This document shows positions 1 to 64,000 of a DNA stretch of 64,000 nt, piece after piece. The number at the start of each line of letters is the position of its first letter. The first letter of the stretch is position 1. Both the position numbers and the translations under genes were made by a program. The notes beneath the pieces were generated by a model, which was given only the letters and a program-made list of their open reading frames with translations, was not told where the DNA came from and ran no database searches. Source of the DNA: Candidatus Marinacidobacterium sp. (lineage in GTDB: Bacteria; Acidobacteriota; Vicinamibacteria; Marinacidobacterales; Marinacidobacteraceae); the NCBI GenBank assembly GCA_965204755.1, contig OZ242011.1, forward strand, positions 2,016,001 through 2,080,000, written 5' to 3'.

Positions 1-3
1 GCG

Positions 4-1485
4 GTGTCCGACTCCGGGAAGCCGAGCCGGACGGCGCGGCGGTTCCTCGAAGAGACCACCGGCGCGGAACGGCCGCGGGCGCACCGGAACGCGGTCCTGC
101 TGGTCGTCCCCGGGCGGGACGGCCTGCTGTCGGCGGAGTTGGCGGCGCGGACGCTCCTCGGCTGGGAGGAAGTCGAGCGCGAGTTGTCTTCCCACGCGGT
201 GGACCCCGCCCAGAGGGAGCGGCTCCGGGCGAGGCTCGGGGAAGCGCGCCGGAACCTCCCGGGCCAGGTGCGGCAGGCCTACTCCGTCGTCGTGACGCTG
301 GACGAAGACGGGAAGGTCGCGGCGTTCCGGCTGCCGGGTTCCGCCGAGCCGCTCTTCCGGCAGATCCGGGACGACCGCCGGTCGCGCGTCCGCGACCAGG
401 AGGTGAACTCGGCGGCGCTCATGCCGGACGGGCCGTACGACCTGTGGCGCGAGGGGGAGGACGCGCGGCCGCTCAAGGACATCGTGGGGTCGTTCTCGCG
501 GTTGCCCCGGATGCCGAAACTGCTGCGGCCGGAACTGGTGGTGGATACGGTGATGCAGGGCGTGGAGAACGGCCGCTTCGCGGCGCGGCTGCGGCGCCCC
601 GACGGCACGGCGCGCACTTGGTGGCGCGAGCCGGTGGACGCGGCTTCGCGCGAGGACGCGCTGGAGATCGTCCTCCCGGAGAAGGCGGAGTTGAGCGAAC
701 TCGCGCCGGGGCTGCTCGCGCCGGGGGTCCTGCCCGACCTGTGGAGCGGGGAGGGGCCGGGCACGCTCCTGCGGTGGGACGACCTGCTCGCGTACTTCGC
801 GGGGGGGCGCGCCGCGCCGATTCCCGGCGAAGAGCCGGTGTTCGTTCCCCGGTGCGGGGAGTCGGAGGTCGCGGCGGCGGCGGCCGCGGCGGTGGAGGAC
901 GGGACGGTCTGGCTGGACGGCGGGGCCTACTCGCTGTGGAAGGAGCCGGTTCCGGCGGGGGCGTTCCGGTCGGGGGCGGCGCTGCGCCCGCCGCCGCGGA
1001 AGTTGGAGCCGGCGGAGATCGGGGAGGACGGGCTGCCCGCGGCGTGGGAGAACGGGGCGACCACCGGCGCGGCGCTGCTCCGGGCGGCGTCCCACGAGTC
1101 GCGGCAGTCGCTCCCGTGGGGCGTCCTGCGGGACTCGATCCGGGGCGCGGTGGACGCCCGCTGGCTGAAGTTGAGCGACGACAGCGGCCCGGTGGACTGC
1201 GATGTGGACGCGGCGGCGCTGCTGCGGCTGACGCGGCCGTCGCGCCGGGAGGGGCCGCCGGTGCCGCCGCCGATCCCGCCGGGGCCGATCGCAGCCGGCG
1301 CGGAGTTGGACGACGCCCAATTCATGGACCTGGCCGAGAAGGTGGGCGATCTCCGGTCGGCCAGCGCCGGCCACGAGTTGCGCTTCGAGGTGCGCGTCTC
1401 CGTCGCGGAGGACGCTCCCGCTGCGGTGCGCGCGGAGATCGACCGCCTGCTGGGCGAGATCTCGGAGGCCCTGAAAACCGGCTGA
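4..1485 (+). CDS. C-terminal part of a DUF499-type AAA+ ATPase-associated protein (5' end outside window)
   Basis: Long ORF with GC3-rich coding bias running in from the window edge. Segments such as RNAVLLVVP..DGL and SFSRLPRMPKLL resemble DUF499 proteins as I recall them. Confidence 0.55.
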   Translation: MSDSGKPSRTARRFLEETTGAERPRAHRNAVLLVVPGRDGLLSAELAARTLLGWEEVERELSSHAVDPAQRERLRARLGEARRNLPGQVRQAYSVVVTLDEDGKVAAFRLPGSAEPLFRQIRDDRRSRVRDQEVNSAALMPDGPYDLWREGEDARPLKDIVGSFSRLPRMPKLLRPELVVDTVMQGVENGRFAARLRRPDGTARTWWREPVDAASREDALEIVLPEKAELSELAPGLLAPGVLPDLWSGEGPGTLLRWDDLLAYFAGGRAAPIPGEEPVFVPRCGESEVAAAAAAAVEDGTVWLDGGAYSLWKEPVPAGAFRSGAALRPPPRKLEPAEIGEDGLPAAWENGATTGAALLRAASHESRQSLPWGVLRDSIRGAVDARWLKLSDDSGPVDCDVDAAALLRLTRPSRREGPPVPPPIPPGPIAAGAELDDAQFMDLAEKVGDLRSASAGHELRFEVRVSVAEDAPAAVRAEIDRLLGEISEALKTG

Positions 1486-1579
1486 CGCCGGGGCGTCGGC
1501 GCGCGCGGCGGAGGCCGTTCCGGCGGGGCCGCCGAGTTACCATCCGCGCCCGGCCGGGCAGCCGGACCCGTCAGGCGCA

Positions 1580-1666
1580 GGAGAGGTGCTGGAGTGGCTG
1601 AACAGGGCTGCCTGCTAAGCAGTTGCGCGGGCAACCGCGCCGAGGGTTCGAATCCCTCCCTCTCCG
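1580..1666 (+). tRNA. tRNA-Ser(GCT)
   Basis: Acceptor GGAGAGG/CCTCTCC, anticodon arm GCTGC-CT-GCT-AA-GCAGT, long variable arm GCGCGG-GCAA-CCGCGC, T arm GAGGG-TTCGAAT-CCCTC. CCA not encoded (CCG follows). Confidence 0.96.
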
Positions 1667-1695
1667 CCGCCCGTTTGCGCACTACTCCGGGATTC

Positions 1696-4581
1696 GTGGC
1701 GAGCAGTTCGAGATTGCGGTCGTTCTCGTTGCCGAGGCTTCTCGCGTTCGGGCTCGCCGGCGCTCTCGCGCTCTCGGCGCCCGCGTTCGCGCAGCCCACC
1801 GGTGGGGTCGGCGGGGTGGTGGAGGACGCGACCGGGGCGGTGTTGGCGGGGGCGCGGGTCACGCTGGTGGAGACGGGCCGCGGGCTCTCCCGCGCCCAGG
1901 CCGCCGGGGCGAACGGGCGGTTCGGGTTCGCGGGGCTTCGGCCGGGGCGCTACGCGGTGTCCGCCGCGCATCCGGGGTTCGCGGAGGGGGCGCCCGTCGA
2001 AGTGCTGGTGGAGGCGGGGTCGGCGCCGGAGGTGGTGTTGCGGCTCTCGCTCGCCGGGGTCACGGAAAGCGTCGTCGCGGAGGGGGCGCGGCGGCCGCTG
2101 GACATCCGGGGGACCGGGGTGCGGGAGACGGTGGATCGGGCGGTGCTCGACGACCTGCCGAACGGGCGGGACATCTGGACGGTGCTCGAACAGACGCCGG
2201 CCGTCCTCATGAACAAGGTGAATGTGGGCGGACAGGAGAGCGGGCAGCAGTCGCTCTTCTCCGCCGCCGGTTCCGCCTGGACGCAGAACCAGTACTACCT
2301 GAATGGCGTGAATGTGACCGACCCGGCCGCGATGGGGGCGTCGCTCACCTACTACGCGTTCGACAGTTTCGAGGAAGTCGAGGTTTCGACCGCCGGGCAC
2401 CGAGCCGAGATCCAAACGCCCGGCGTCTTCCTGAACATCGTCGCCAAACGGGGCGGCAACGACTTCGCCGGAGGCGGCAGCGTGTTCTACGAACACGAGC
2501 GGTTCCAGGCGCAGAACCTGGACGACCGGCTCCGCGCCAGAGGCGTCGGGCAGGCGAACCGCCTGAAGGCGCTGCTCGACTGGTCGTTCGATCTCGGCGG
2601 GCCGATCCGGCGGGAACGCGCCTGGTTCTACCTGAACCGGTCGCGGGTGAAGATCGAGCCGTACTTGCCCGGTTTCTTCCTCGAGAGCGGCGAGCCCGGA
2701 GTGGACCTCACCCAACTCGACAACACGCTCGCCCGGGTGAGCGTCGAAGTGGCCGACGGGCACGAAGTCGGCCTCTTCTACTTCCGCAACGACAAGTTCC
2801 GGCCGTACCGGGGCGCCGGGCTCTTTCGTCCGGCGCCGCAGACGACCTTCTACCAGGACTCGGTGAGCGCGCTCGGCCAGTTGAACTGGTCGGCGGTGCT
2901 CGGGGAGTCCGCGCTCGTCGAAACCCGTTTCAGCCTGCTCGACCTCGACTTCCCCTACGGGCAGCAGCCGGACGCGGAACCCGCCGTTTCCCGCTGGGAA
3001 CTGAACACCGGGGTATGGCGCGGCGGTTCCGGAGCGAACATCCACTACGAGCGGAACCGCTACCAGGCGAGCGGGACGGCCACCGTATTCCGGGACGGCC
3101 TGTTCGGCGCGACGCACGAGTTCCGCGCCGGTTTCGAGTTCAGCCACAACCCGGCGCGAACCACGCGCAACCTCCACCAGGCCATCGTCTATACCCACGA
3201 CCGCGTCCGCCCCATCGAAGTGACCCTCTACAACGATCCCGTCGTGACCCGGAACCGGACGCGCAACCTCGGCGTGTTCGTCCAGGACAGTCTGGTGCGC
3301 GGGCGGTGGGCGTTCGAGATCGGGGCGCGCGCCGACTGGTGGGGCGGCGGGTTCCCCGACCAGACCAACGAACCCGGCCGGTGGAGCGCGGTGTTCGAGT
3401 CACTCGGCGTCGGCCGCCGCACCGACGGGAACCCGTCCGTCGTCTCCTGGTTCGGGATCGCGCCGCGGGTCGGCGCCAGTTACCGGTTGACCGCGGACGG
3501 CCGGACGCTCCTTCGCGCTTCCGCCGGCCGGTACCTCCACCAACTCGCGCTCCATGTCCCGGCCTACGCGAACTCCAACGAGCAGGCGTCCGCGCGTTTC
3601 CGCTTCGACGACCGGGACTTCGACGCGCTGGTGGACGACGGCGAAGTGGACTTCTCGGCGCCGCTCGAGGTCTTCCTGCCCTCGCGCAACGAAGTCGATC
3701 CCGACCTGAAGCAGCCCTACACCGACGAACTCACGCTGGGTATCCACCGGGAGTTCGGCCGGGGCGTGACCCTCGGCCTCACCGGGATCGTCCGGAGCGA
3801 ACGAAACCTCCTGGAGGACACCGATGTGGGCGTTCCGGCGAGCGCTTGGACGCCGACAGCCCACTCCGACCCCGGCCGCGACTTCGTTCGCGGCACGGAA
3901 GACGACAACCCGGTGACCCTCTACCTGCAGGATCCGGCCACGCTGGGGCAGAGCCGCTTCCGCCTCTACAACCCCGGCATCACCGCGAGTTACCGGGGAC
4001 TCGTCTTCGAAGCGCGCAAACGGATGGAAGACCGCTGGCAACTGCTCGCGTCAGTCTCGGTGAGCCGTTCGCGGGGATGGCTGCCGGGCGCCGGCGACCA
4101 GAGCGAAGAAGGAACCGGTTTCCCCGGCGCGCTCTTCAACGACCCGAACCACGACAGCGACCTCCACTACGGCCCGACCTTCTGGGACCGCCCCTTCGTC
4201 GCCCGGGTCTCCGGCAGTTACCGCCTGCCGTGGGGTTTCGCCGCCGCCGCTTCGGCCCGCGCCCACTCCGGCTGGCCGAACTACCGCTCGGTCATCTTTA
4301 CGGAAACGCTCGACGGGCAGCCCTTGCCCCAAGGCAGCACCGAAGTGATCGTCGAACCGCCCGGCGCCGCCCGCTCGCCCATCGTCCCGCTCCTCGACCT
4401 CCGCCTCGACCACCGCCTCACCCTCGGCGGAGCCGTGGAACTCTCGACCTACCTCGATGTGTTCAACGCGCTGAACCTGAACAGCGTCGTCGGCGAAGGC
4501 TCCCGCGACGATTCCTTCGGCGCCGTCGTCGGCATCCTCCCTCCCCGGGTCGCCCGGATCGGTCTCCGCCTTCGGTTCTGA
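1696..4581 (+). CDS. TonB-dependent receptor with N-terminal carboxypeptidase regulatory-like domain (Oar-like)
   Basis: Signal peptide ending AFA-Q, GVVEDATGAVLAGARVT, plug motif YYLNGVNVTD, C-terminal RIGLRLRF. Start moved to GTG 1696 because the track start (1594) lies inside tRNA-Ser. Confidence 0.88.
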   Translation: MASSSRLRSFSLPRLLAFGLAGALALSAPAFAQPTGGVGGVVEDATGAVLAGARVTLVETGRGLSRAQAAGANGRFGFAGLRPGRYAVSAAHPGFAEGAPVEVLVEAGSAPEVVLRLSLAGVTESVVAEGARRPLDIRGTGVRETVDRAVLDDLPNGRDIWTVLEQTPAVLMNKVNVGGQESGQQSLFSAAGSAWTQNQYYLNGVNVTDPAAMGASLTYYAFDSFEEVEVSTAGHRAEIQTPGVFLNIVAKRGGNDFAGGGSVFYEHERFQAQNLDDRLRARGVGQANRLKALLDWSFDLGGPIRRERAWFYLNRSRVKIEPYLPGFFLESGEPGVDLTQLDNTLARVSVEVADGHEVGLFYFRNDKFRPYRGAGLFRPAPQTTFYQDSVSALGQLNWSAVLGESALVETRFSLLDLDFPYGQQPDAEPAVSRWELNTGVWRGGSGANIHYERNRYQASGTATVFRDGLFGATHEFRAGFEFSHNPARTTRNLHQAIVYTHDRVRPIEVTLYNDPVVTRNRTRNLGVFVQDSLVRGRWAFEIGARADWWGGGFPDQTNEPGRWSAVFESLGVGRRTDGNPSVVSWFGIAPRVGASYRLTADGRTLLRASAGRYLHQLALHVPAYANSNEQASARFRFDDRDFDALVDDGEVDFSAPLEVFLPSRNEVDPDLKQPYTDELTLGIHREFGRGVTLGLTGIVRSERNLLEDTDVGVPASAWTPTAHSDPGRDFVRGTEDDNPVTLYLQDPATLGQSRFRLYNPGITASYRGLVFEARKRMEDRWQLLASVSVSRSRGWLPGAGDQSEEGTGFPGALFNDPNHDSDLHYGPTFWDRPFVARVSGSYRLPWGFAAAASARAHSGWPNYRSVIFTETLDGQPLPQGSTEVIVEPPGAARSPIVPLLDLRLDHRLTLGGAVELSTYLDVFNALNLNSVVGEGSRDDSFGAVVGILPPRVARIGLRLRF

Positions 4582-4614
4582 CAGCCGCCCGCTCGGCCGC
4601 GCCGCCCGGCGGGG

Positions 4615-11389: not shown

Positions 11390-11424
11390 GAGGGCGGGAA
11401 AGGGTTGGGGCCGGTGGGCGCGCC

Positions 11425-20898: not shown

Positions 20899-20971
20899 GG
20901 GGCTGTGGCGCAACTGGGAGCGCGCGTGAATGGCATTCACGAGGTCACGGGTTCGATCCCCGTCAGCTCCA
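20899..20971 (+). tRNA. tRNA-Ala(GGC)
   Basis: GGGGCTG/CAGCTCC acceptor with G3:U70, anticodon GGC, T arm ACGGG-TTCGATC-CCCGT. CCA not encoded. Confidence 0.96.
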
Positions 20972-21017
20972 CCGGTTCCCTCCTCCGCCTCCGGCGGGGA
21001 GGGTCGGAGTCCGACCG

Positions 21018-21112
21018 GGAAGCGCATGGGGTCTGGCGGCCCCCGCGGACTTCAAATCCGTTGATTCCGGGTTAGTCCCCGGGATGGTGGGTTCGATTCC
21101 CACACGCTTCCG
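21018..21112 (+). tRNA. selC: tRNA-Sec(TCA)
   Basis: GGAAG 5' end, 6-bp D stem GGGGTC-TGGC-GGCCCC, anticodon arm GCGGA-CT-TCA-AA-TCCGT, long variable arm, 8/5 acceptor/T fold, G discriminator. Confidence 0.93.
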
Positions 21113-21165
21113 CCCGCCCGCGGCGAACCACCGGGCGACACCTTCCGCAGTCCCGACTGAGCCCC

Positions 21166-25875: not shown

Positions 25876-26220
25876 GTGGGACTGCGCCTGGTAGTCCCGC
25901 GGGGTCGCGCACAGCGGGCTTCGAGACCGCTGCTCGCCAATGACGAGTCCCGTTGTTATCGGGTTTCCGGGCGCCCCTCAGCGCCGCCGGGACGCGGGCA
26001 AAGTGGGAGCGCGACCCTTGCCCGAATACTACCGAGACTGACCGGGCCAAGCGGAAAGCGTCGCGTGCTATCCTCTGTTTCCAAGGGCCGCATCCTACTA
26101 GCTCTCCCAAAAGGTGAGGAGTGCCTGGCAACTCCAAAAAAGGGACTCGGCTTTGCCGAGCGGAGGGTAGTCGCGGCGCCACCGGGCGGCCCCACGGGGA
26201 CTACCAGGCGCAGTCCCCAC
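25876..26220. repeat. 345-bp element bounded by ~33-35-bp inverted repeats (REPIN/MITE-like or structured RNA)
   Basis: Left arm GTGGGACTGCGCCTGGTAGTCCCGCGGGGTCGC (25876-25908) is nearly the reverse complement of GCGGCCCCACGGGGACTACCAGGCGCAGTCCCCAC (26186-26220). Confidence 0.75.
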
Positions 26221-26797: not shown

Positions 26798-27231
26798 TCG
26801 GTTACCGGTTCCTTCGGGCCTTCCACCCAGACTTCGCCGTCCTCGAACACTTCGCGTTTCCAGATCGGGACGATGCGCTTGATCTCGTTCATCGTGTGCC
26901 TGGCCGCGTCGAACGCGTGCCCCCGGTGCGGCGAAGCGGCGGCGACCAGCACGCTCGCTTCCCCGATCTCCACCCGGCCGGTGCGGTGGTGGACGCGCAG
27001 CCGCTCCACCCCGAACCGGGCTCGCGCGTCCTCCGCGACCCGCGCCAGCACCGGGAGCGCCATCTCCTCGTACGCCTCGTATTCCAGGTAGCGCACCGCC
27101 CGGCCCCGGTTCCGGGCGCGGACGATCCCGGCGAAGACCACGACCGCGCCGTCGGCGGAGACTTCCAGCCCTTCGCGGATCGCCGTCTCGCTCAGCGGCT
27201 CGGCGGTGAGCCGGAACGGGCTTCCGCTCAC
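26794..27231 (-). CDS. moaE: Molybdopterin synthase catalytic subunit
   Basis: [31 protein letters not shown]. Confidence 0.95.
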
Positions 27232-28043
27232 GACGCGGCGAGTCCGGCGGGCAGGTGGCCGAGGGGCCCGTGGCCCCGGCCGAGCGGCGCGGCCCGGAGC
27301 ATCGCCGTCCGCACATAGGCGAGCGCTGCTTCCACCGACTCCCGGAGCGTGCGGCCCCGGGCGAGTCCGGCGGCCACCGCCGCCGACAGCGTGCAGCCGG
27401 TCCCGTGCGTCGCCGGCGTCTCGATCCGGGGAGCGCGGAACACCGCTTCGTCGCGGCCGTCGCTGAAGAAGTCCACGACTTCGCCGCCGGGCAGGTGCCC
27501 GCCCTTCACCAGCACCGCCCTCGCGCCCATCTTCAGCAACCGCTCGGCGGCGCCCCGCATCGCGGATTCGTCTTCGACCGCCCGCCCGGTGAGGTCGGCC
27601 GCCTCGGGCAGGTTCGGGGTGAGGAGCGCGGCCAGCGGAAGCAGGCGCTCCCGCAGCGCGTCCACCGCGTCCGGACGCAACAGCCGGTCACCGGTCTTCG
27701 CCACCATCACCGGGTCCACCACCAGCGGCAGCCGCCGCCTCGCCATCGCCTCGGCCACCGCGCGGATGATGGCCGCCGACGAAAGCATCCCGGTCTTCGC
27801 CGCCGCCACCGGGAAGTCGTCGCACACCGCGGTGATCTGGGCGCGGATCAACTCCGGGTGGACTTCGGCGACGGCGGCAACCGCCACCGTGTTCTGCGCG
27901 GTGATCGCCGTGATCGCGGAGACGCCGTACGTCTCGTGGGCGGCGAAGGTCTTGAGGTCGGCCTGGATGCCGGCCCCGCCGCCGGAGTCGGAGCCGGCGA
28001 TGGTCAGGGCCACCGGGGGCGCCGGCGGGGGCGCCGCGGTCAA
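27228..28043 (-). CDS. thiD: Hydroxymethylpyrimidine/phosphomethylpyrimidine kinase
   Basis: [50 protein letters not shown] start inferred. Confidence 0.95.
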
Positions 28044-28063: not shown

Positions 28064-29416
28064 TCAGGAGGGAGCGGTGCGGAACGCCAGCACCCGCGCC
28101 GCGTCCTCGCCCCACTCCGCGGCCTCCGGGCCCGGCTCCAGGTTCTGCCCGTGCAGGTCGCGGATTTCGCGGTAGAGCAGCAGCCGCAACTCCCGGTCGG
28201 CTTCGAGCGGCGCATGCGGCCGCACCACCAGCGTCCGGCTGCCCTCGTCGTAGGCCACTTCGAGGTCGGGGAACGGGTTCCCGTCCGGCTCGTCCTCGTA
28301 GAGCAGGTCCACCGCCGCGTGGAAACTGTCCGCGATCATCCGGTTGGAGAACTGCACCCGGAACTCGCTGTCCAGCGGAATCTCCCGCTCGCCGTCCAGC
28401 GGCAGCGAGAAGACCACCCGCAGCGGCCCGAACTCGGCCTCCCGCGCTTCGCGTTCGGCGATGCGGATGTCCACCGGTTCGAGCGCCGGGTCGCCCGGCG
28501 CCTCCGCGATCTCGAGGCGCTCGGCGCGCAGGTAGGTCTGGCCGTCCGCGGTCCACGGCCGGCCGTACACGCGCAGCCACTTGCCGGTGTCGCGGCGGCG
28601 TTTCGGGTCGAGCCGGAAGCCCTTGCCGGCGGGGCGCATCCCGGTGACCCAGATGGCGGTCTCGCCGGTCTTGATGACGAAGTCGCGCGGCGTCTTCTTG
28701 GTCTTGATCGAGAGGTCGCCGAACAGGTTGTTCCCCCGGAACTTGCCGACGACTTCGACGCGGCGGCCGATGTACGGCTCGGGGTCGGCGAGCAGCCCGT
28801 CGAGGCCGATCGCGGCGGCGCTCCCCGGGGCGATCTCGATGCGGTCGCCGGCGGCCATCTCTTCCTTCGCCTCGCGCTCGCGGCGGTCGGAGAGGTCTTC
28901 GGTGTCGCCGATCGTGGAGACGGAGACGACGGCGAGGAACCCTTCGGTGCGGCGGTCGAGGGTGTTGCCGGAGATCCACGCCGGATCGAACGGGTAGTTC
29001 CGCAGGATCGGGTGCATCTGGAGGGTGTAGGAGTCGAGCATCCGGGTGGAGAAGAACCAGCCCTCGACTTCGACTTCGCTCGCGCCGAGGAACATCAACT
29101 GGTTCCCGGACATGTAGGAGGCCGCCATCAGGATTTCCCGCGAGAGTTCGTCCGGGTCTTCGAGCACCTGCACCCGGTGGTCGGTCCCGAAGGAGAACCC
29201 GACCTTGCCGCGCACCATCACGGCGGACTCGTGGTACCGGCCGGGTAGGCGGGAGAGGTCGGCGACGGAGACCAGTTCCGGCTGGTCGGGGAAGTAGCCG
29301 AACTGCGCGGCGGCCGGGGTCGCGGCGAGGAGCGTCGCGGCGAGGAGGGTCGCGGCGGCGGCGGGCGCGGCCGGTGTCGGGCGGGGTCCGATGCGGACGC
29401 GAACCGCGGGAGTCAT
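28064..29416 (-). CDS. Secreted protein with OB-fold-like segments and C-terminal Ig-like (Big_5-like) domain
   Basis: Signal peptide ending AAA-Q and C-terminal [30 protein letters not shown] 29416 preferred because ATG 29473 overlaps a likely -10 element. Confidence 0.7.
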
Positions 29417-29471
29417 GGTGCCTCGGGTCTCCGCAGGGCGTGTCCCGTCGGGCGTTTGCGGAGGGTCGGCC

Positions 29472-29480
29472 ATCGTAGCA
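29472..29480 (-). promoter_or_regulatory. Putative extended -10 promoter (TG-C-TACGAT) for the Ig-like protein-thiD-moaE-moaD run
   Basis: Minus strand TGCTACGAT. Its -35 position would overlap the first copy of the repeat array. Confidence 0.35.
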
Positions 29481-29497
29481 CCGGGGGCGCGGGCGGC

Positions 29498-29920
29498 GAA
29501 TTGTGTATAGCTGCCGACGGGCGGCGGCGAATTGTGTATAGCTGACCGGTCGGCGGCGAATTGTGTATAGCTCCGGCCTGGCGGCGCGGAATTGTGTATA
29601 GCTCGGGCTCGGCGGCGCGGAATTGTGTATAGCTGCCGGAACCGCGCTCCGAATTGTGTATAGCTTCGGATCGGCGCTCCGGATCGCGCAGGGACGCCCC
29701 CGGTGCGCCCCGGAGGGCGCGCATCGGCCCGAATTCACCCGGAATCGCGTGTGTACGCCGGTGTAGATGCCCCGGATCGCCTACGGCCGCAAGGGGTTGA
29801 GCGGAATTGTGTATAGCTGCCCGGAATTGTGTATAGCTCGACCGAATTGTGTATAGCTGCCGCGCGAATTGTGTATAGCTGCCGCGAATTGTGTATAGGT
29901 GCCGGGAATTGTGTATAGGT
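29498..29920 (+). repeat. Array of 12 direct repeats GAATTGTGTATAG(C/G)T in two blocks of six
   Basis: Copies start at 29498, 29529, 29558, 29589, 29620, 29651 (periods 31,29,31,31,31) and 29804, 29824, 29844, 29866, 29886, 29906 (periods 20,20,22,20,20). Confidence 0.97.
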
Positions 29921-30013
29921 GGACGACTCCGCTCCCGCGGGGCGCCGGGGGGTCTGCGCGATCCGCCGGCGGCGCGGAGGGCGGCTGGTAGGGTTGCCTC
30001 GCGGCGGGTGAGC

Positions 30014-31135
30014 ATGGCGGATCGGCAACTCCTCCCGGACTCTCCCGAGGAACCCCCCGGACTCGACCGGATCCGCGGGTGGCTTCGCCGGCCGCGCCCC
30101 CGGCTGCGGGCGGTCTGGCTCTGGTTGCGCTGGCTCGGTCGGGGAATCGCCGGCGGCGCGGGCTGGGTCGGCCGGAACGCGCTGCCGGCGGCGCGGGGCG
30201 TGGGCCGGATCGCCGCCGGCGGAGCGAGGGTGGCGCGCGCCGCCGCGCACATCGGCCGGAGCGCCGGGAAGGTCGGCGCGAGTCTGGGCGAGATGGGGAG
30301 CGGGATGAGCGCCGCCGGCGGCCGGTTCGGGCGGATCGGTTCGGCGCTCTCGAACGCCGGCGGGCGCGTGCGCCGGTTCGGCCGGGGACTCCGCCGCACC
30401 GGCCGGGGCGCCGCCGAAGGCCTCGACAGCGTGTCCGTCCTGGGGCGTCACCTCGAATCCGACGCCCCCCTCGGCCCCCCGCCCGCGGAGGAACTCCCGC
30501 CCCCGGCGCCCGAGGAACCGGAGAGCGGGTCGCCGCCCGTCGAACCGCCGCGGACGCCGCGCACCCGGAAGACCGCGAGTTCCGCGACCGCCTCTTCCGC
30601 CCCGCCGCCGACCCCGCCCGAACCGGCGCAACCCGAACCGCCTGCGGAAGCGGATCGGCCCGCGAAGCCGGCCGCCGGCGCCGCCCGGAAGGCCGCCGCG
30701 AAGCGGAAGCGGAAGCGGTCTTCGCCGCCGCCCGCCCCCACGCCGGCGAAGGAGACCGACGCCCCGCCGAAGGCGAGAGACGAACCGCCGAAGGCGAGGG
30801 ACGAACCGCCGAAGAAGAGCGACGCCGCGCCGAAGGCGCCGCCCGAAACCCCGCCCTCCGACGCCGTGCCGGACGCGCTGCCCGAAGCCTTGCGAGCCCG
30901 CATCGCGGCCCTCGGCAAACGGCCCCGCAAGCAGGCGCTCCGGTCCCTCATCCTGGACATCTGCCGCGTCCGCGAGTGGACGACCGCCACCGAACTGGCC
31001 GCCATCCTCGGGGTGGGCCGGCGGTCGCTCTCCACCCGCCACATCGCCCCGATGGCCGACGCCGGCCTCCTCGAACGGCGCTACCCCGACAACCCCACCA
31101 ACCCCGCCCAGGCCTACCGCGCCCCCGCCGCGTGA
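30014..31135 (+). CDS. Protein with Gly/Arg-rich amphipathic N-terminus, Pro-rich linker and C-terminal winged HTH (Fic-like/RecG C-terminal type)
   Basis: ILDICRVREWTTATELAAILG...HIAPMADAGLLERRYPDNPTNPAQAYR, with PPKARDE tandem repeats in the linker. Confidence 0.7.
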   Translation: MADRQLLPDSPEEPPGLDRIRGWLRRPRPRLRAVWLWLRWLGRGIAGGAGWVGRNALPAARGVGRIAAGGARVARAAAHIGRSAGKVGASLGEMGSGMSAAGGRFGRIGSALSNAGGRVRRFGRGLRRTGRGAAEGLDSVSVLGRHLESDAPLGPPPAEELPPPAPEEPESGSPPVEPPRTPRTRKTASSATASSAPPPTPPEPAQPEPPAEADRPAKPAAGAARKAAAKRKRKRSSPPPAPTPAKETDAPPKARDEPPKARDEPPKKSDAAPKAPPETPPSDAVPDALPEALRARIAALGKRPRKQALRSLILDICRVREWTTATELAAILGVGRRSLSTRHIAPMADAGLLERRYPDNPTNPAQAYRAPAA

Positions 31136-38613: not shown

Positions 38614-39879
38614 ATGCCAGCAACCCCGAAAACCCGCAGCGCCGCTGCCGGCGCCGCTCTCGCCCTCGCCTTCCTGACCCTCGGCTGTCCGGCCCCCGAG
38701 CCGACCTCGAACGCCCTCGTCTTCGAAGGCATGCGCATCATCGTCGGCGACGGAAGCGCGCCGATCGAGAACGGCGTCTTCGTCGTCGAAGAGGACCGCT
38801 TCCTCGCCGCCGGCGCCGCCGGCCAGGTCGAAACGCCGCCCGGCGCGCACCGCATAGATCTGACCGGCCGCACGGTGATCCCCGCGCTGCTGGACACCCA
38901 TGTCCACCTCTCCGTCCCGCGCGAGGAACTGATCGACGACCTGCACCGCCGCGCCTACTACGGCGTCGGCGCCGCGCTGAGTCTGGGCCACGACGACGGC
39001 GACGCCGCCCTCGAGGTGAGAGCCGAACCGATCCGCGGCGCGGCGCGCGCGATGACCGCCGGGCGCGGCATCACCCGCCCCGAACCGGGCCGCTCCGAGG
39101 CGCCCTACTGGGTGGACACCGAGGAAGAAGCCCGCGCCGCGGTGCGCGAACTCGCCGAGAAGCAAGTGGACATCGTGAAGATCTGGGTGGACGACCGCGG
39201 CGGCCGATACGAGAAGATGACTCCCGAACTCTACGGAGCGGTCATAGACGAAGCTCACACGCAAGGCCTGCGCGTCACCGCCCACATCTACACGCTGGAA
39301 GACGCCAAGGGACTGCTCCGCGCCGGCGTGGACTCCTTCGCCCACGGCGTGCGCGACATGGAAGTGGACGACGAGTTCGTGGAGTTGGTCCGCGAACGCC
39401 CGGAAGTGGTGCTGGTTCCCAACATGGGAAGCCGCGGCGTCCTCGAGGATCTCGGCTGGCTCTCCGGGACGATCGGGCCGGACGAACTCGCCGAGTTGCA
39501 GGCGGGTTACCAAGATCGCCCGGAAGCCCAGGCGCGCCACGCCATCGAGGCCGCCAACCTCGCGCGGCTCCACGCCGAAGGAATGAAGATCGCCCTCGGC
39601 ACCGACGGCAACGCCGGCTGGCGCCCCCACATAGAAATGGCGGACATGGTGGCCGCCGGCCTGACCCCGCACGAAGTCCTGGTGTCCGCAACCAGCAGCG
39701 CCGCCGAGTTCCTGCGCCTCGACGACATGGGCACGATCGCCGCCGGCAAGAGCGCCGACTTCGTGGTCCTGGAGGGCAACCCCCTCGATGACATCACCAA
39801 CACCCGCCGCATCGAGTCCGTATACCTACGCGGCAAACCGGTGGACCGCGAGGTGATGAGCGCCAACTGGCTCCGGTAG
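38614..39879 (+). CDS. Amidohydrolase family lipoprotein
   Basis: Lipobox TLGC, PALLDTHVH, TAHI, AHG, LGTD, GKSADFVVL..NPL. Confidence 0.9.
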   Translation: MPATPKTRSAAAGAALALAFLTLGCPAPEPTSNALVFEGMRIIVGDGSAPIENGVFVVEEDRFLAAGAAGQVETPPGAHRIDLTGRTVIPALLDTHVHLSVPREELIDDLHRRAYYGVGAALSLGHDDGDAALEVRAEPIRGAARAMTAGRGITRPEPGRSEAPYWVDTEEEARAAVRELAEKQVDIVKIWVDDRGGRYEKMTPELYGAVIDEAHTQGLRVTAHIYTLEDAKGLLRAGVDSFAHGVRDMEVDDEFVELVRERPEVVLVPNMGSRGVLEDLGWLSGTIGPDELAELQAGYQDRPEAQARHAIEAANLARLHAEGMKIALGTDGNAGWRPHIEMADMVAAGLTPHEVLVSATSSAAEFLRLDDMGTIAAGKSADFVVLEGNPLDDITNTRRIESVYLRGKPVDREVMSANWLR

Positions 39880-42207: not shown

Positions 42208-42277
42208 GAGCCAAGAGTGTGACATCAGGGCTGTCTCACGTTCACGCGGGAAGGCCGGAGCAACGGAGACGATTGAG

Positions 42278-42751
42278 ATGACGCGGTCCGCGGGGTTGCC
42301 GGAGGATGGGCGATCGAGTGATTGCCGAGTTCTGCCTGCCTACGCTCTCTGTCTTGTATCCTGTGGACGCTGTAAGTTGAACCACGCCGCCCCGGCAAAG
42401 TGTCTCTACCGATCGGAACGTTTCCAGAGGACGCGCCGGTTCGTGGAAGAACGAGGCTGGCCGTGGTTCATTCTCTCCGCAAGACACGGACTGCTGTGCC
42501 CGGATCGAAAGATAGGTTGGTACGATGAGACACTCTGTACTATGCCCGAGGAAGATCGAAAGAAGTGGGCCGAGGGTGTGCTCGGCGATCTTCGACCACG
42601 GCTTGGCGATGTGCGGTCCATCGTTATCTTCGCTGACCCAAAATACTCGGAGCACTTGGCCCCTCGTCTTCTCGATCTCGGCCTTCAGGTCTGTTGCCGG
42701 GAGCGGGATTGGGTCGTGAGGAACTGCAATTCCGACCTGCAGATCGATTGA
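42278..42751 (+). CDS. DUF6884-like protein, copy 2 (diverged, Cys-rich)
   Basis: LCLVSCGRCK..PAKCLY..WPWFILSARHGLL..YDETL, lower GC, divergent C-terminus. Confidence 0.7.
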   Translation: MTRSAGLPEDGRSSDCRVLPAYALCLVSCGRCKLNHAAPAKCLYRSERFQRTRRFVEERGWPWFILSARHGLLCPDRKIGWYDETLCTMPEEDRKKWAEGVLGDLRPRLGDVRSIVIFADPKYSEHLAPRLLDLGLQVCCRERDWVVRNCNSDLQID

Positions 42752-42773
42752 ATCACCCGATTCAGGATGCCCG

Positions 42774-43517
42774 ATGATCCGCGTCGCTGACACGGTGCGC
42801 TTCTACGCGCTGTTGGCGCAGATCGAGGGGAAAGTCGGCGGGCGTCGCTGCCTCGCCGAGTGCGATGGCGGAACGGACTGGCCCGCACGCGGCGTCTACT
42901 TCTTCTTCGAGCCCGGCGAACGCCGGAAACTCTCCGGCAAGGGCGACCGCGTCACGCGCGTCGGCACGCACACCGGCCTGACGACCTCCCTCTGGAATCG
43001 GCTGAGCCAACACTGTGACCCATTCAGCACTGGCCCGGAGTGCCATCGCATCTCCGTCTTCCGCGGCTTGGTCGGTCGGGCGCTGACCTATCGCGGCGAC
43101 TGTGAACTTCCGCGCACTTGGAGATGGGCGAATGACGACCGGCGAACCAAGAGAGGGAGGACGACAGAGGTCGCGCCCCGATTCCGCATGACCACCGAGC
43201 AAGTGGAGGCGAGCGAGGCGGACTTGGAGCGGCGAGTGAGCGACTACATCGGTCGAATGCCGCTCCTCTGGCTCCGCGTGCCGGACGCCGGGAAACGCGG
43301 CAGCATGCGCCGCCGCCGCATCGAACGCCAAGCCATCGCGCTCTTGAGCGGTTACTCCCGCCCGGCGCTCGACCCGCCCTCCGCGCACTGGCTCGGAAAC
43401 CACAGCGACCGCAGGAAGAACCGCGAGTCGGGTCTCTGGAACAGCAAACATGTGGACGAGCCCTACGACCCGACGTTCCTCGACGAGATGGAAGACCTCA
43501 TCGCCGCCTGGCGATAG
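42774..43517 (+). CDS. GIY-YIG-like nuclease, copy 3
   Basis: Third paralog with the same motifs. Confidence 0.75.
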   Translation: MIRVADTVRFYALLAQIEGKVGGRRCLAECDGGTDWPARGVYFFFEPGERRKLSGKGDRVTRVGTHTGLTTSLWNRLSQHCDPFSTGPECHRISVFRGLVGRALTYRGDCELPRTWRWANDDRRTKRGRTTEVAPRFRMTTEQVEASEADLERRVSDYIGRMPLLWLRVPDAGKRGSMRRRRIERQAIALLSGYSRPALDPPSAHWLGNHSDRRKNRESGLWNSKHVDEPYDPTFLDEMEDLIAAWR

Positions 43518-49153: not shown

Positions 49154-49164
49154 TGGGGGTGAAC

Positions 49165-49953: not shown

Positions 49954-50001
49954 GGTTACTGGCTCCTGTTGTGGATGATCTTGACCGATGCGGTCGTCCC
50001 G

Positions 50002-52777: not shown

Positions 52778-52799
52778 ACGCCGACGCGCCCGCGCCGCC

Positions 52800-54607: not shown

Positions 54608-54638
54608 CCGGCGGGGGAGCGTACGCGCTCGGGCCGCG

Positions 54639-55715: not shown

Positions 55716-55865
55716 CGGCGAGCAATGGGGGCTGCCCCGGCGGGACGCCGGCCCGGCTCGGGGGCGGGCGCCCGCCGCCGCGCCGGCGTGAGACATTTCT
55801 CACGGCCGGCGGACGACCCGGAGCGGCGCCGCGTCGGCGCCCGGCCCCGGGCCGGGGTCAGTCCG

Positions 55866-56189: not shown

Positions 56190-56262
56190 TTTCTGTTGCT
56201 CTCCTTGAAGAGGGGATGGAGTCGGGGGAATCGGGGAAATCGGGGAACGGCGGTTCCGGGCG

Positions 56263-56952
56263 TCAGTGTTCGTCCGCGGTAACCGCGCCGCCGAGGTAGA
56301 TGACGGTGAGCATGGTGAAGACGAACGCCTGCAGGAAACTGCCGAAGACGCCGAAGGCCATCATCGGCACCGGAATCACCAGCGGCACCAGGAAGGCGAG
56401 GACCACGACGACGAGTTCCTCGCCGAAGATGTTGCCGAAGAGCCGCATCGAAAGCGAGAGGATGCGGCTCAGGTGGCTGATGATTTCGATCGGCAGCATC
56501 ACGATCGCCAGGTACGGACTCGGCCCGAGGAAGTGCGCGAAGTACTTCTTCGCGCCGTGCTCGCGGATGCCCTGGTAGTTGTAGTAGGCGAACGCGACCA
56601 GCGCGCAGCCCACCGGCATGTTCACATTCACCGTGGGCGACGAGAAGAAGGGAATGAGTCCCAGCAGGTTCCCCACCAGGATGAACAGCCCGATGGTGCC
56701 CACCATTCCCAGGAACGGGCGGCCCTTCGCGCCCACATTGTCCCGGAGCAGCGAGAGGAGCCCGCCGATCAGCCCTTCGAGGACGAGTTGCAATTTGCCC
56801 GGGTTCTCGAGCGAGATGCGCCGCCGGAAGAAGAACGCGAAACCGGACAGGAACACCGCCGCGAACACCGCCATCACGATGTGGTCCGGCGGGTGTACGT
56901 GGAATACCGCCTCGATCCAGTGCGTCAGCGCTGACGAGTGGGTGATTTCCAT
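56263..56952 (-). CDS. atpB: ATP synthase Fo subunit a
   Basis: NLLGLIP, SLSMRLFGN, LQAFVFTML..YL. Confidence 0.95.
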   Translation of the reverse strand: MEITHSSALTHWIEAVFHVHPPDHIVMAVFAAVFLSGFAFFFRRRISLENPGKLQLVLEGLIGGLLSLLRDNVGAKGRPFLGMVGTIGLFILVGNLLGLIPFFSSPTVNVNMPVGCALVAFAYYNYQGIREHGAKKYFAHFLGPSPYLAIVMLPIEIISHLSRILSLSMRLFGNIFGEELVVVVLAFLVPLVIPVPMMAFGVFGSFLQAFVFTMLTVIYLGGAVTADEH

Positions 56953-56994
56953 GGTGGTTGCCGCGAGGCGGGAGGGGGGAGCCGGGGCGTCCGG

Positions 56995-57537: not shown

Positions 57538-57752
57538 GGTCGGCGGGGAGTCGGGGCGGAATCACCCGGCGGGTCGGGTCGGTCGGGCTGCCGCCCGCCC
57601 CCGGGCGCGGCGGCGGAGGCGGCGCGCACCACATTGCGGATCCCGGCGGCGACGCCGAAGCCGAGGAACAGCAGCGAGAGCCACGGCAGCGTTCCCAGCG
57701 CCCGGTCGAGGAGGAACCCGACCGCCCCGCCGCCGACGACGGCGATCGGCAC
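57534..57752 (-). CDS. atpZ: AtpZ/AtpI family small membrane protein (start uncertain, ORF open to ~57851)
   Basis: GFLLDRALGT.PW..L.LGFG..AG. Confidence 0.8.
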   Translation of the reverse strand: MPIAVVGGGAVGFLLDRALGTLPWLSLLFLGFGVAAGIRNVVRAASAAAPGGGRQPDRPDPPGDSAPTPRRP

Positions 57753-57847
57753 CGAGAACCCGAGGCTCAGCAGCGTCAGCGTCCGGGCGCGGGGCGGAGC
57801 GCCGCCGGGCCCGGTTCCGGGCCCGGGGTCGGGCGCCGGCGGAACGC

Positions 57848-59623: not shown

Positions 59624-59664
59624 TTCGGGGGGTTATCGCCGGTCGGTCGAACGGGGAGGGAGGG

Positions 59665-61695: not shown

Positions 61696-62032
61696 GTCAG
61701 GGAGTCCGGGTCGGTCGGCGCGGGATGGCGGTCAGCGGCGGCGCCGCCGGCCGGCGCGGCCGACGAGCGCCGCCGGTCGGGCCCGGCGGGAGAACCGTCC
61801 TCCCCGCATCGCCGCCGTCTTTCGACCGGCGAACGCCGGGCCGCCGCCGGTGGATCGCGGATCGAAACCCCGCCGAAACCGGCGCGGAAAATACCGGATA
61901 CGCCCAGCCGGGTCAACGACTCCGGGCCTCCCGCCCCGGCCCCGCCGGGCGCGGACCGGGCGAACGCGCCCTCCGCCGGCCCCGGCCCGCCGGGTTCGGG
62001 GAGCGCCCCTCGGCGCGAAACGCCGGGGGGCG

Positions 62033-62060
62033 GCGGGGAGAGGGGCTCCCCTTTCCCCGC
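62033..62060. terminator. Hairpin just downstream of the SDR gene
   Basis: GCGGGGAGAGGGG-CT-CCCCTTTCCCCGC, no clear U-tract. Confidence 0.35.
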
Positions 62061-62066
62061 GGGCCG

Positions 62067-62858
62067 TCAGTAGAGGCTCTTGATGTGGCCGCCGTCCACC
62101 TGCAGCGTCGTCCCGGTGATGTAACTCGCCCGCTCCGACGCCAGGAAGGCCGCCGCCGCCCCGAACTCCTCCGGCTCGCCCACCCGGCCGAGCGGGATGT
62201 CCTTCGCCCACTCGGCATAGACCGCTTCCTCCGGCGTCCCGCGGCTCTCGGCCAGGTGGGCGGCCAACTCGGCGAGCCGGTCGGTGCGGGTGAAGCCGGG
62301 GCACAGCACATTCGCCAGCACCCCGTAGGGCGCCGCCTCGTTCGCCAGCGACTTCATGAACCCGGCGATCCCGGCGCGGGCGGTGTTCGACAGGATGATG
62401 TCCGGCACCGGCTGCTTCACCGACACCGAGGCGATGGCCAGGATCCGCCCCCAGCGCCGCTCCCGCATCCCGGGCAGGGCCGCCCGCACCAGGTGGACGC
62501 AGGACAGGAGGTTCTCGTCCAGCGCCCGCTTCCACTCCTCCGGGGTGGTGTTCGCCAGCCGGGTCGGCGGCGGCCCCCCGGCGTTGGTGACCAGGATGTC
62601 CACCTGCCCGAACTCCGCCTCGGCGGCGCGGACGAAGCCGGCCGCCGCCTCCGGGTCGCCCACATCCACCGGATGGGCCAGCACCGCCGCGCCGCTGCGG
62701 GCGCGGATTTCGGCGGCGGTCCGCTCCAGCGCCTCCGCCCCGCGGGCGCCGAGCGCCAGCCGCGCGCCTTCGGCGGCCAGCGCCTCCGCCACCGCCCGCC
62801 CGAGGCCCCGGCTCGCCGCCGCGACTACGGCGACCCGCCCGCTGATCCCGAGATCCAA
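62067..62858 (-). CDS. SDR family oxidoreductase
   Basis: AASRGLG, NAGGPP, GRI..IAS, VLCPG..TDR, YITG..LQVDGG. Confidence 0.92.
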   Translation of the reverse strand: MDLGISGRVAVVAAASRGLGRAVAEALAAEGARLALGARGAEALERTAAEIRARSGAAVLAHPVDVGDPEAAAGFVRAAEAEFGQVDILVTNAGGPPPTRLANTTPEEWKRALDENLLSCVHLVRAALPGMRERRWGRILAIASVSVKQPVPDIILSNTARAGIAGFMKSLANEAAPYGVLANVLCPGFTRTDRLAELAAHLAESRGTPEEAVYAEWAKDIPLGRVGEPEEFGAAAAFLASERASYITGTTLQVDGGHIKSLY

Positions 62859-62942
62859 GTCAGCCCGTCCGCGCCGCGCCCGGCCGGGCCCGGCGCCGGG
62901 CTGCGGCCGATCCCCCGAACCGCCCCCGCCCGTCCGGAGGGG

Positions 62943-63275
62943 TCACCCGTACTGGCGTTCCTTGCAGTCCACGCACACCCGCGTCCAGGGCACGGCGCGC
63001 AGGCGCGGCTCGGGGATCGGCTCCTCGCACTCGGAGCAGACGCCGAACACGCCCTCCCGGATGCGGGTCAGCGCCTTCTCGATCGCCCGGAGCAATTTGG
63101 CGTCGTTCTGCTGCAGTTGGATGACGATCTCGTCGTCGCTGGCGACCATGGAGCGGTCGCCGTCGTCCCCCCGCGCCTGGCTCCGCGAGAACTCCCGGGT
63201 GTGCACCAGCCCCTCGATCTCGGCCTTCTTGTCGAGCAGCCGCCGCTCGTGCTGCGCCAACTCTTCGGGGGTCAT
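62943..63275 (-). CDS. TraR/DksA family C4 zinc-finger regulator
   Basis: AL.RI..G.FGVCSECEEPI...RL.A.PW...CVDC. Confidence 0.92.
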   Translation of the reverse strand: MTPEELAQHERRLLDKKAEIEGLVHTREFSRSQARGDDGDRSMVASDDEIVIQLQQNDAKLLRAIEKALTRIREGVFGVCSECEEPIPEPRLRAVPWTRVCVDCKERQYG

Positions 63276-63650
63276 GTGGTCGGTCTCGCCGGTGTCTTCG
63301 CGGGAGGAGGGGCGCCGCGTGAGCCGCCCCGCCGGGGTCGCCGGGAGACGCCGTCCGCAAAAACGCCGAACCGCTGATTCTAGCCGGAGACCGGCCCGGA
63401 TCTTGGCCGCCCGGCCCTCGACTGGTACCCTCCGGCGCCCTGTGGAGCCGCGGCGCGGGCCGTCGGCCGCGGCGCCCGAACCCTCCCGGGGCGCGGGCGC
63501 TCACCGGAGGCGCCGATCCTCCCTCCCCCTGCGGGGGCGCGCTCCGAACCGTTGATTCGAAGCCCCTCCACGGGCTGTACCCGGGCGCCGGGCGGACCCG
63601 GCGCGGCGTTTTTCGCCGGCCTCGGCCCCTCTTCGTGCACGGAGGTAGTT

Positions 63651-64000
63651 GTGCGATTTACCCCCCCCCCCCCCCCCCCCCTACTTTTTGTTGCGCTTCG
63701 CTCACCGGCCGGGAGCGCCCGACATCGAGGGCGCTGACAGCGGCGTTCCTCGTCGCGTTCGCGGTCATTTCCATCGGTTGTAGCGAACAGTCGGCGTCCA
63801 CCGCGCCGGCGCCGGCTCCTCCCCCGGCAGCCGCGCCGGCCGCGCCCGCGCCGGGTGCGCCGGCGGACCTCCGGGTCTCGGCGACCGGCGTGGATTTCAT
63901 CGAGGTCTCCTGGAGCGCCGTCGAGGGGGCGACCGGCTACGAAGTCCAGTTGAGTCTTCTCGCCGCCGCCGACTTCAGTTCGGTAACGGCGGCGAATGTC
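63651..64000 (+). CDS. Fibronectin type III-domain lipoprotein, frameshifted at the poly-C tract (runs off window)
   Basis: GGAGG + GTG 63651. The downstream frame reads ALTAAFLVAFAVISIG-C (lipobox), a Pro/Ala linker and APADLRVSATGVDFIEVSWSAVEGATGYEVQ (FN3), but is out of frame with the GTG. Confidence 0.7.
63661..63681. repeat. Homopolymer C21
   Basis: 21 consecutive C, starting 7 nt after the GTG at 63651-63653. Confidence 0.95.

Follow-up and report, generated by a model that had tools for sequence, protein, structure and literature searches.

The palindromic tetranucleotides AGCT and ACGT have been almost eliminated from the chromosome of a Candidatus Marinacidobacterium species (GenBank assembly GCA_965204755.1, contig OZ242011.1), hereafter G000, a single contig of 3,975,858 bp with 71.7% GC. 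The analysis concerns a 64,000-nucleotide stretch of this contig (positions 2016001-2080000, 71.3% GC), called the window, and the genome around it; coordinates below 64,000 refer to the window and higher ones to the contig. A first-pass annotation of the window had claimed that both words were erased from it and that a repeat array nevertheless kept AGCT. The erasure was confirmed, and proved to be stronger than claimed and genome-wide. We regard AGCT and ACGT as forbidden words in this genome, the probable cause being long-lasting selection against two palindromic restriction targets. The sites that remain are located in structural RNAs, in recently acquired genes with a low GC content at third codon positions (GC3), and in nine bipartite repeat arrays, one of which is in the window.

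The window contained 13 AGCT sites, ten of them in the array (29509, 29540, 29569, 29600, 29631, 29662, 29815, 29835, 29855 and 29877) and three outside it, at 20965, 26100 and 39252, precisely the positions annotated earlier. Ten of the 12 array copies carried AGCT, also as annotated, and the final two units read AGGT. For ACGT, the inspection by eye was right about two of the five sites (27929 and 56897) and had overlooked those at 42238, 42418 and 43473. Under a Markov-2 model, the ratio of observed to expected counts (O/E) in the window was 0.098 for AGCT, array included, and 0.047 for ACGT. In the whole genome there were 332 AGCT sites against 7,448 expected (O/E 0.045, z -133) and 265 ACGT sites against 7,148 expected (O/E 0.037, z -129). 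These were the two lowest of the 256 tetramers; CTAG was third, at only 0.34 once codon-corrected.

Far from returning to 1 after codon correction, the ratios in genes were lower still. With a null that preserved protein sequences and global codon usage (5 shuffles, 2,775 genes), AGCT was found 142 times as compared with 8,482 expected (0.017), and ACGT 176 times as compared with 7,015 (0.025). The same was true of native intergenic DNA, defined as 1,240 spacers between high-GC3 genes (143 kb, RNA genes and arrays excluded), which held three AGCT sites against 144.5 expected (0.02) and two ACGT sites against 146.8 (0.01). Only the palindromes were affected: the non-palindromic look-alikes AGGT/ACCT were not depleted (O/E 1.25). 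We conclude that the taboo operates at the DNA level, whether the sequence is coding or non-coding.

Codon choices of the type GAA-CTN, GAG-TTG and GAT-GTN, which had been spotted by eye in the window, were quantitatively extreme in genes. Before CTN, glutamate was encoded by GAA in 99.3% of cases (n=4,532) as compared with 32% elsewhere, glutamine by CAA in 98% (10.5% elsewhere) and lysine by AAA in 98.9% (11% elsewhere). Leucine after NAG was TTG in 97.1% of cases (n=2,744), as compared with 4.7% elsewhere. Aspartate, asparagine, histidine and tyrosine before GTN used the T-ending codon in 98.2-98.4% of cases against 6.5-14% elsewhere; for aspartate, GAT accounted for 98.4% (n=2,410) against 10%. 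Before T, AGC made up 0.4% of serine codons (26% elsewhere) and ACG 0.7% of threonine codons (40% elsewhere). Sites were thus removed by any single change that could be tolerated; in genes these were synonymous changes, hence the near-obligatory GAA-CTN, GAG-TTG and GAT-GTN.

The distribution of surviving sites was highly uneven. Seventy of the 332 AGCT sites (21%) were in the nine arrays, at a density of 17.7 per kb over 3.95 kb as compared with 0.066 per kb elsewhere. Another 27 fell within 23 of the 68 tRNA and tmRNA genes, and 25 were at 2,265,400-2,271,900, a stretch without genes and with 60-64% GC, two of these being also in the tRNA count. We take this stretch, to which no rRNA model was applied, to be an rRNA operon, since tRNA-Ile and tRNA-Ala lie inside it. 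Called genes contained 143. The 187 genes with GC3 below 0.8 (219 kb) held 76 AGCT and 76 ACGT, and the 2,349 genes with GC3 of at least 0.85 (3,031 kb) held 53 and 71, so that the density of the taboo words was 0.33-1.1 per kb in low-GC3 genes versus 0.014-0.03 per kb in high-GC3 genes. This steep gradient is expected if incoming foreign DNA carries the sites and is later purged of them.

The phylogenetic extent of the loss was assessed in 39 relatives, 24 from the same family and 15 from the same order. Up to 20 kb was sampled from each (some stretches were 2.5-9 kb) and larger pools were used for some genomes, giving overall 2.5-120 kb per relative rather than whole genomes. One unpublished genome, G033, was left out of this sample; tallies of patterns and proteins over 41 genomes include it, and no claim depends on it alone. 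Both words were lost in G001, a sister species of the same genus (observed/expected 21/214 for AGCT and 35/205 for ACGT). In G005, which belongs to a different genus, ACGT was lost (5/74) and AGCT was normal (200/215). ACGT was partly lost in G007, of a third genus (16/89; AGCT 160/178). The remaining sampled relatives were near expectation for both words. Loss of AGCT is thus common only to G000 and G001, and loss of ACGT extends to two other genera. Since G005 lost ACGT alone, the two losses are separable.

A side observation concerns a site that normally contains ACGT. G000 has a single close parS-like match, which lies at 1,819,116, about 4 kb upstream of dnaA (1,823,291), and reads TGTTTCACGCGAAACA. 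Its centre is CACGCG in G000 and CACGGG in G001, G005 and G007. A parS-like site with CACGTG was present in 32 of the 37 relatives without ACGT loss, the canonical form being found in genera g2 and g3, part of g4 and two sister families. No statistics were attached to this comparison, the genomes being non-independent.

Three further palindromes, CAGCTG, CTCGAG and GTCGAC, were moderately scarce in the family samples (genera g2, g4 and g6), with observed/expected counts in g2 of 15/45, 147/234 and 36/94, respectively. This scarcity across the family suggests further, older avoidance signals.

The first-pass annotation had pointed to AGTT/AACT and ATGT/ACAT, the C-to-T derivatives of the two words, as the signature of 5-methylcytosine deamination. 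If so, methylated AGCT and ACGT would have been eroded by unrepaired C-to-T change with no selection on the sites. There is some material for this explanation in the genome, which encodes six C5 methyltransferases (M1 to M6); M1, M2 and M5 each have an adjacent Vsr gene, and M3 and M6 do not. In genes, AGTT, AACT and ATGT were 1.8-3.0-fold above the codon-shuffle expectation, and serine AGC before T was replaced by AGT. Several lines of evidence nevertheless make mutational decay improbable. First, about 70% of expected sites fall in the NAG-CTN and NAC-GTN frames, where a single synonymous step can lead only to the C-to-T words; an excess of AGTT, AACT and ATGT in genes thus follows from the genetic code by itself. 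Secondly, there was no excess in native intergenic DNA (O/E 0.79 for AGTT/AACT and 0.89 for ATGT/ACAT). Thirdly, the genome-wide Markov excess (1.56 for AGTT/AACT and 1.66 for ATGT/ACAT) was nearly equalled in relatives that retain both words (AGTT 1.2-1.5, ATGT 1.37-1.46); the bias of AGCA and ACGA in G000 was likewise matched in such relatives. Fourthly, a site that starts at codon position 3 cannot be lost synonymously through C-to-T change, yet such sites were 5-6.5-fold depleted (O/E 0.15 for AGCT and 0.20 for ACGT). Fifthly, changes of another kind were seen: threonine ACG before T went to ACC or ACT and not to ACA, the product of deamination on the bottom strand (2.1% versus 1.3%); the parS changes were from T to C or G; and the variants within the arrays were AGGT and AGCC (C to G and T to C), never AGTT or AACT. 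Finally, an O/E of about 0.01-0.02 is far below that of vertebrate CpG, which is roughly 0.2. Taken together, the evidence favours selection against the sites themselves over mutation. The proposal of long-term methylation or restriction avoidance therefore stands in so far as the palindromes have undergone long-term, lineage-specific elimination, and falls in its argument from deamination.

A search for matching methyltransferases identified C5 genes whose presence tracks the losses within the family, their specificity for AGCT and ACGT being a prediction. G000 contains the six C5 genes and about 28 N6/N4 matches. M1 lies beside an EcoRII-type endonuclease gene and Vsr, and is probably part of a CCWGG system; M2 and M5, with their Vsr neighbours, have no relative in G001, and an island of low GC content holds M4. 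M3 (1,262,827, minus strand) and M6 (1,519,950) each belong to a four-gene module, and the two modules are paralogous. In addition to the C5 methyltransferase, each encodes a GHKL-type ATPase (A), a beta-sandwich protein (B) and a DUF6339 protein (C). The reading frame of the M3 methyltransferase is intact. Among the 41 order-level genomes, an M3-like methyltransferase was found only in G000 and G001, where it is 73% identical and syntenic, that is in 2/2 AGCT-depleted genomes and 0/39 others. M6-like methyltransferases were found in G000, in G005 (74% identical, with a full module) and in G001 (43%, same slot, diverged cassette), that is in 3/4 ACGT-depleted genomes and 0/37 others; in G005 this is the only C5 methyltransferase. 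At the shared slot (G000 1,519,950, G001 251,029), the four-gene modules are only 24-43% identical and the flanking genes 75-84%, and one cassette seems to have replaced another there. We assign M3 to AGCT and M6 to ACGT with low confidence only; in the proposed mechanism, the two modules would be the drivers of the respective losses.

The A proteins (545-656 amino acids) share the motifs E..NS.DA, NTTGL and GSYGIGK across eight aligned sequences, which we take to be the GHKL N-box, G1 and G2 motifs. A structural model of low confidence (predicted local distance difference test score, pLDDT, 57.6) was compared with known folds by Foldseek: all 42 listed matches out of 75 (E <= 0.001) were GHKL ATPases, the best being Hsp90, TopoVI-B and MORC3 (E 2e-6 to 3e-4). 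By motifs and predicted fold, the A protein therefore qualifies as a GHKL (Bergerat-fold) ATPase; Pfam and PDB sequence and profile searches gave no match to it. The B protein (about 300 amino acids) was modelled with confidence (pLDDT 88.9) as a beta-sandwich plus helices, and its structural matches were to beta-sandwiches of a generic kind and to nothing else (Foldseek E > 1e-3; VIA Z <= 8.1). With PADLOC, the partners of M3 matched PDC-M33A, B and C (E 8e-93, 3e-40 and 1e-22), all three components occurring together. In the M6 module, A matched only marginally (4e-6) and B and C not at all; the M6-module C protein also scored below the cut-off against Pfam DUF6339 (6e-4). No paper, and no published function or target, was found in the literature under 'DUF6339' or 'PDC-M33'. 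GHKL/MORC-type ATPases were reportedly linked to restriction-modification genes by Iyer, Abhiman and Aravind in 2008. The M3 module resembles PDC-M33 and such restriction-linked ATPases in its matches to the models, its GHKL motifs and fold and its adjacent C5 methyltransferase; the M6 module differs in fitting the models only marginally.

Other candidates were considered and rejected. Three N6/N4 methyltransferases, a large one with a ResIII helicase beside the array at 2,895,447 and two small ones, were common to depleted genomes (the small ones to the ACGT-depleted genomes), and were frequent in non-depleted kin as well. CAGCTG, as a narrower target of M3, was uninformative: in the module-carrying genome G298 it was found 0 times versus 12 expected, yet g2 also had 15 versus 45. 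The RE_ApaLI model (PF09499) had no match anywhere, an AluI-type endonuclease model not being among those searched for. The target-recognition region of M6, used as a query, found 1,260 relatives, none of them with a name that gives a specificity.

Avoidance of short palindromes as restriction sites was reportedly described in prokaryotic genomes by Gelfand and Koonin in 1997. The present case resembles such avoidance in the scarcity of 4 bp palindromes, its restriction to a single lineage and its greater strength in resident than in acquired DNA; known avoidance can also outlast the system that caused it. It differs in its degree, with O/E of about 0.01-0.02 in native DNA and 98-99% codon-context compliance, in that two words are affected together, and in that the genes identified include no orthodox endonuclease/methyltransferase pair, GHKL-ATPase modules being the only candidates that track the loss. 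To our knowledge, multi-gene modules of this class have not been known to cause avoidance. Site avoidance itself is textbook knowledge; the unusual features here are how far it goes, that it strikes a pair of words and that one repeat family is exempt.

A number of observations weigh against restriction by these modules as the cause. The specificities of M3 and M6 are predictions, and in structure searches neither the A nor the B protein showed a nuclease fold. In G000, one in-frame TGA breaks the frame of the DUF6339 gene in the M3 module (1,259,155-1,259,930, locus L073); its syntenic counterpart in G001 is an open frame of 253 amino acids. Phylum- and class-wide samples (401 genomes each, counting G000) contained similarly built modules in G298, G389, G421, G189 and G585, all with normal AGCT and ACGT counts; their methyltransferases are 53-61% identical, with conserved recognition regions, and more distant versions in G601, G608, G712 and G475 were likewise unaccompanied by depletion. 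Conversely, no C5 methyltransferase was found in G007, a draft of 410 contigs and 86% completeness that shows ACGT loss. The profiling of drivers covered the C5 genes and a minority of the N6/N4 genes, and the gene-based counts depend on our own simple codon-model gene caller. As regards parS, the CACGGG form was also found in five genomes not depleted of ACGT (G006, G010, G013 and G015 of genus g6, and G012), and the change may reflect shared ancestry rather than the taboo; in these non-depleted kin, a parS without ACGT might be the relic of an earlier and more extensive episode, or again a matter of shared ancestry. Lastly, Rusinov et al. (2015; PMC4687349) associate avoidance with orthodox Type II systems and mostly not with other types. 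The same authors state that where a system shows no avoidance it may have been acquired only recently, and that avoidance may outlive a lost system. Either circumstance would reconcile the data.

The closest parallel in degree is an unexplained one. According to Poirot et al. (2019; 10.1101/712018), AGCT has been erased from clade-A pandoraviruses, and restriction-modification was excluded there by digests and PacBio sequencing. Both cases combine near-zero AGCT with a high-GC megabase genome, clade-specific distribution and non-directed replacement, to judge from that account. In the pandoraviruses, which are viruses of eukaryotes, ACGT is untouched and restriction was excluded experimentally; G000 is a bacterium with many methyltransferase genes that has lost ACGT too. 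With this precedent, the taboo might be unrelated to restriction-modification, some other DNA-level process such as site-specific nicking, recombination or repair being harmful at the palindromes. The lack of an identified cognate endonuclease in G000 and the existence of M3/M6-like modules without depletion elsewhere agree with such a process. We consider it unlikely, as both words are 4 bp palindromes, the classic form of Type II targets, with non-palindromic analogues spared; the genome is unusually rich in methyltransferases; and losses have been independent (ACGT only in G005), as expected from two separate enzymes. A survey of the titles and opening lines of abstracts on AGCT and ACGT avoidance, which did not extend to literature under the name of the organism, showed no such double erasure in a bacterium.

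The arrays are the most conspicuous exception to the taboo. That in the window consists of two sub-arrays on the plus strand. Sub-array 1 (29498..29666) has six direct GAATTGTGTATAGCT units with start-to-start spacings of 31, 29, 31, 31 and 31 bp, all with AGCT; sub-array 2 (29804..29922) has six direct units spaced by 20, 20, 22, 20 and 20 bp, four with AGCT and the last two with AGGT. A GC-rich central spacer separates them (29667..29803). Nine loci of this kind were found in G000, at 357,894; 756,031; 1,207,930; 1,659,915; 2,045,499 (the window array); 2,895,447; 2,970,772; 3,119,130 and 3,494,175. Each comprises a pair of sub-arrays, with 4-9 direct units apiece that recur every 20-22 bp or 29-31 bp. 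The central spacers are of rather uniform length (142-224 bp, mostly 179-195 bp), have 69-85% GC and contain no gene; those of the nine arrays do not align, so their sequence is not conserved, and the spacers between units also vary. In total there are 104 units with at most one mismatch, 100 of them with a perfect core. The core, GAATTGTGTATAG, comprises 13 nt invariant across the 100 perfect-core units, followed by S-T-S: position 13 reads C in 75 units and G in the other 25; T occupies position 14 in 91 units and C does so in 9; position 15 can be either G or C, and the bases after it are free. AGCT, which arises from CT at positions 13-14, is present in 69 of the 100.

The 35 proteins tested from beside the nine loci share no family and include no rep or par product; many are housekeeping proteins (hisF, aroA/aroB, amidase), one array lying between aroB and aroA and another beside hisF. 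Rfam found nothing beyond tRNAs, and a promoter and terminator scan found no promoter-like site and one terminator-like site at chance level. Two small elements occur in the neighbourhood. R1, of 17 nt, has 14 copies in the genome (at most two mismatches), five of them within 600 bp of an array as compared with about 0.05 by chance (358,271; 755,721; 1,207,897; 2,895,837 and 2,970,738); where a copy directly adjoins an array, whichever the side, it is oriented outwards. An element of about 55 bp resembles the end of a transposon, having a TGT terminus and a pair of direct repeats in sub-terminal position; seven copies of the repeat were found, four near arrays and in either orientation to R1, with the element at 358,315; 585,880/585,905; 1,575,814; 2,970,680 and 3,119,676/3,119,701.

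The suggestion that the array is recent was partly supported, as it is absent from both syntenic loci checked in G001, a species that shares the depletion. At both loci, G001 has a short spacer in its place; at the window locus, a 1.9 kb piece containing the array and an adjacent ORF for 375 amino acids is missing. The motif had no copies in G001, and 0-8 scattered one-mismatch matches in each of the other 39 relatives. The arrays would accordingly have been gained after the split from G001, and hence when the AGCT purge had already begun. Exact-pair scans returned only AT-rich chance repeats, at two loci in genome_contigs, 19 in metagenome_contigs and none in viral_contigs, collections that may leave out the genome itself and near ones; plasmid and phage BLAST searches gave no array match, with the records of near genomes possibly left out. 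Contigs of related strains from other sequencing runs do carry the array at the window locus, and one from run X5 spans 28600-30569. In runs X3 and X7, 29511 is changed from C to G, which converts AGCT to AGGT at position 13. In runs X5, X6, X8, X10 and in X7, X12-X14 (sponge metagenome, marine metagenome), 27-52% of the sampled array-region words were present; of these runs, only X5 and X7 were compared with the window.

The anatomy of the arrays points to a family of phased candidate binding sites, with a core under strong selection. They would be iteron-like sites for a sequence-specific DNA-binding protein, phased at about two or three helical turns, and the earlier suggestion that the array is protein-shielded is plausible on this ground. 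AGCT itself would be favoured but not required at two positions that are only partly constrained, and present because C and T are preferred at positions 13-14, and it could be tolerated through methylation, occupancy or decay of the cognate restriction arm. The iterons of theta plasmids (P1 incC/incA, RK2 and F) and the R1 parC centromere are direct repeats with about two-turn phasing in two clusters. The arrays share with them the conserved-core direct repeats, the phasing of about two helical turns and the two clusters. They differ in having nine chromosomal copies, no adjacent rep or par gene and no plasmid or phage match, and in the gene-free, GC-rich spacer of 142-224 bp between clusters.

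The first-pass annotation had compared the array with the GATC cluster of E. coli oriC, as a methylation-sensitive switch. No support for this was found, the C of AGCT being a G in a quarter of the units. More generally, the arrays might need AGCT, either because methylation tunes binding or because they load or titrate an AGCT-specific machinery. The abundance of CT (69 of 100 units), the bias at position 13 (75 C to 25 G) where flanking GC-rich positions are about 50:50, the share of all AGCT sites in arrays and the intact frame of the M3 methyltransferase are in keeping with such a need. It is made improbable by the roughly one-third of units that lack AGCT, by the C/G polymorphism among related strains at 29511 and by the finding that no array adjoins M3 or M6. 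Very unlikely, in our estimation, is a combined proposal in which the arrays are part of the taboo, as licensed, heavily methylated AGCT reservoirs read by the array binder, and M3/M6 represent a new ATP-dependent class of 4 bp restriction; the arrays would then be self-marks, or titration or loading sites for an AGCT-directed GHKL module.

DnaA was considered as the reader, with the arrays as titration sites resembling datA or the Bacillus DBC. On its complementary strand the core reads CTATACACA, which agrees with the E. coli DnaA-box consensus TTATNCACA at eight of nine positions. In this genome [CT]TATNCACA is clustered nowhere but in the nine arrays (102 of 104 matches), the canonical TTATNCACA occurs once, and there is no box cluster near dnaA (1,823,291). 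This attribution is nonetheless very unlikely. Four further invariant bases (AATT) and the preceding G are unexplained by a 9 bp box, and the sister species G001 lacks the arrays although DnaA is universal; both findings speak against DnaA as the reader. The boxes of oriC and datA, moreover, are not known to be phased at 20-21 bp in a single orientation, and there is no AT-rich unwinding element, the central spacers being 69-85% GC. The replication origin could not be placed from GC skew and gene orientation, which are too irregular. A separate array at 2,558,527-2,558,620, of six to seven GTTGACAAC units about 13-15 bp apart directly upstream of a low-GC ORF of 410 amino acids, was tried as oriC and rejected as another small array.

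In the window, the array is flanked on one side by a gene on the minus strand (28064..29416) that encodes 450 amino acids, including an Ig-like domain of the Big_5 family and an N-terminus resembling a signal peptide; it is divergent from the array and conserved in G001. On the other side is the plus-strand ORF of 375 amino acids (30008..31135), which belongs to no known family, is lacking, like the array, at the syntenic position in G001, and has paralogues in G000 that do not adjoin arrays. Of the three AGCT sites outside the array, that at 20965 is in the plus-strand tRNA-Ala(GGC) gene (20899..20973), one of the 23 tRNA/tmRNA genes that retain the word; a tRNA-Sec gene (anticodon TCA, 21018-21114) lies immediately 3' of it. 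The second (26100..26103) is in uncalled sequence between genes, in the context CTAGCTC, and the third (39252..39255) starts at codon position 3, the frame of weakest depletion, of a plus-strand gene (38614-39879). Among the ACGT sites, 27929..27932 is in a phosphomethylpyrimidine-kinase gene on the minus strand (27228-28043), 42238 and 42418 (42238..42421) are in uncalled sequence at 42208-42773, 43473..43476 is in the following plus-strand gene (42774-43517, GC3 0.84), and 56897..56900 is in a minus-strand gene (56263-56952). Elsewhere in the genome, two giant ORFs at 507,401-539,089 (about 31.7 kb) and 3,520,104-3,549,614 (about 29.5 kb) have native codon usage and three to four taboo sites each.

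If restriction is the cause, this is among the most complete erasures of words in a cellular genome, at about 1-2% of expectation, extending even to a centromere site, parS, without its usual ACGT, and it shows how far defence can rewrite codon usage, with 97-99% context-dependent choice. If restriction is not the cause, G000 joins the AGCT anomaly of the pandoraviruses in a bacterium, which may prove a more convenient subject of study. The M3 and M6 modules offer a test bed, as each has a predicted 4 bp target and AGCT and ACGT reporters could be scored against a chromosome nearly free of sites; were the arrays in fact licensed reservoirs, this class of module could drive near-total erasure of a word from a cellular genome. 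The nine arrays constitute a repeat family found in none of the collections searched. For the genus as a whole, AGCT and ACGT are very sharp markers of native versus foreign DNA, for gene finders and for tests of horizontal transfer.

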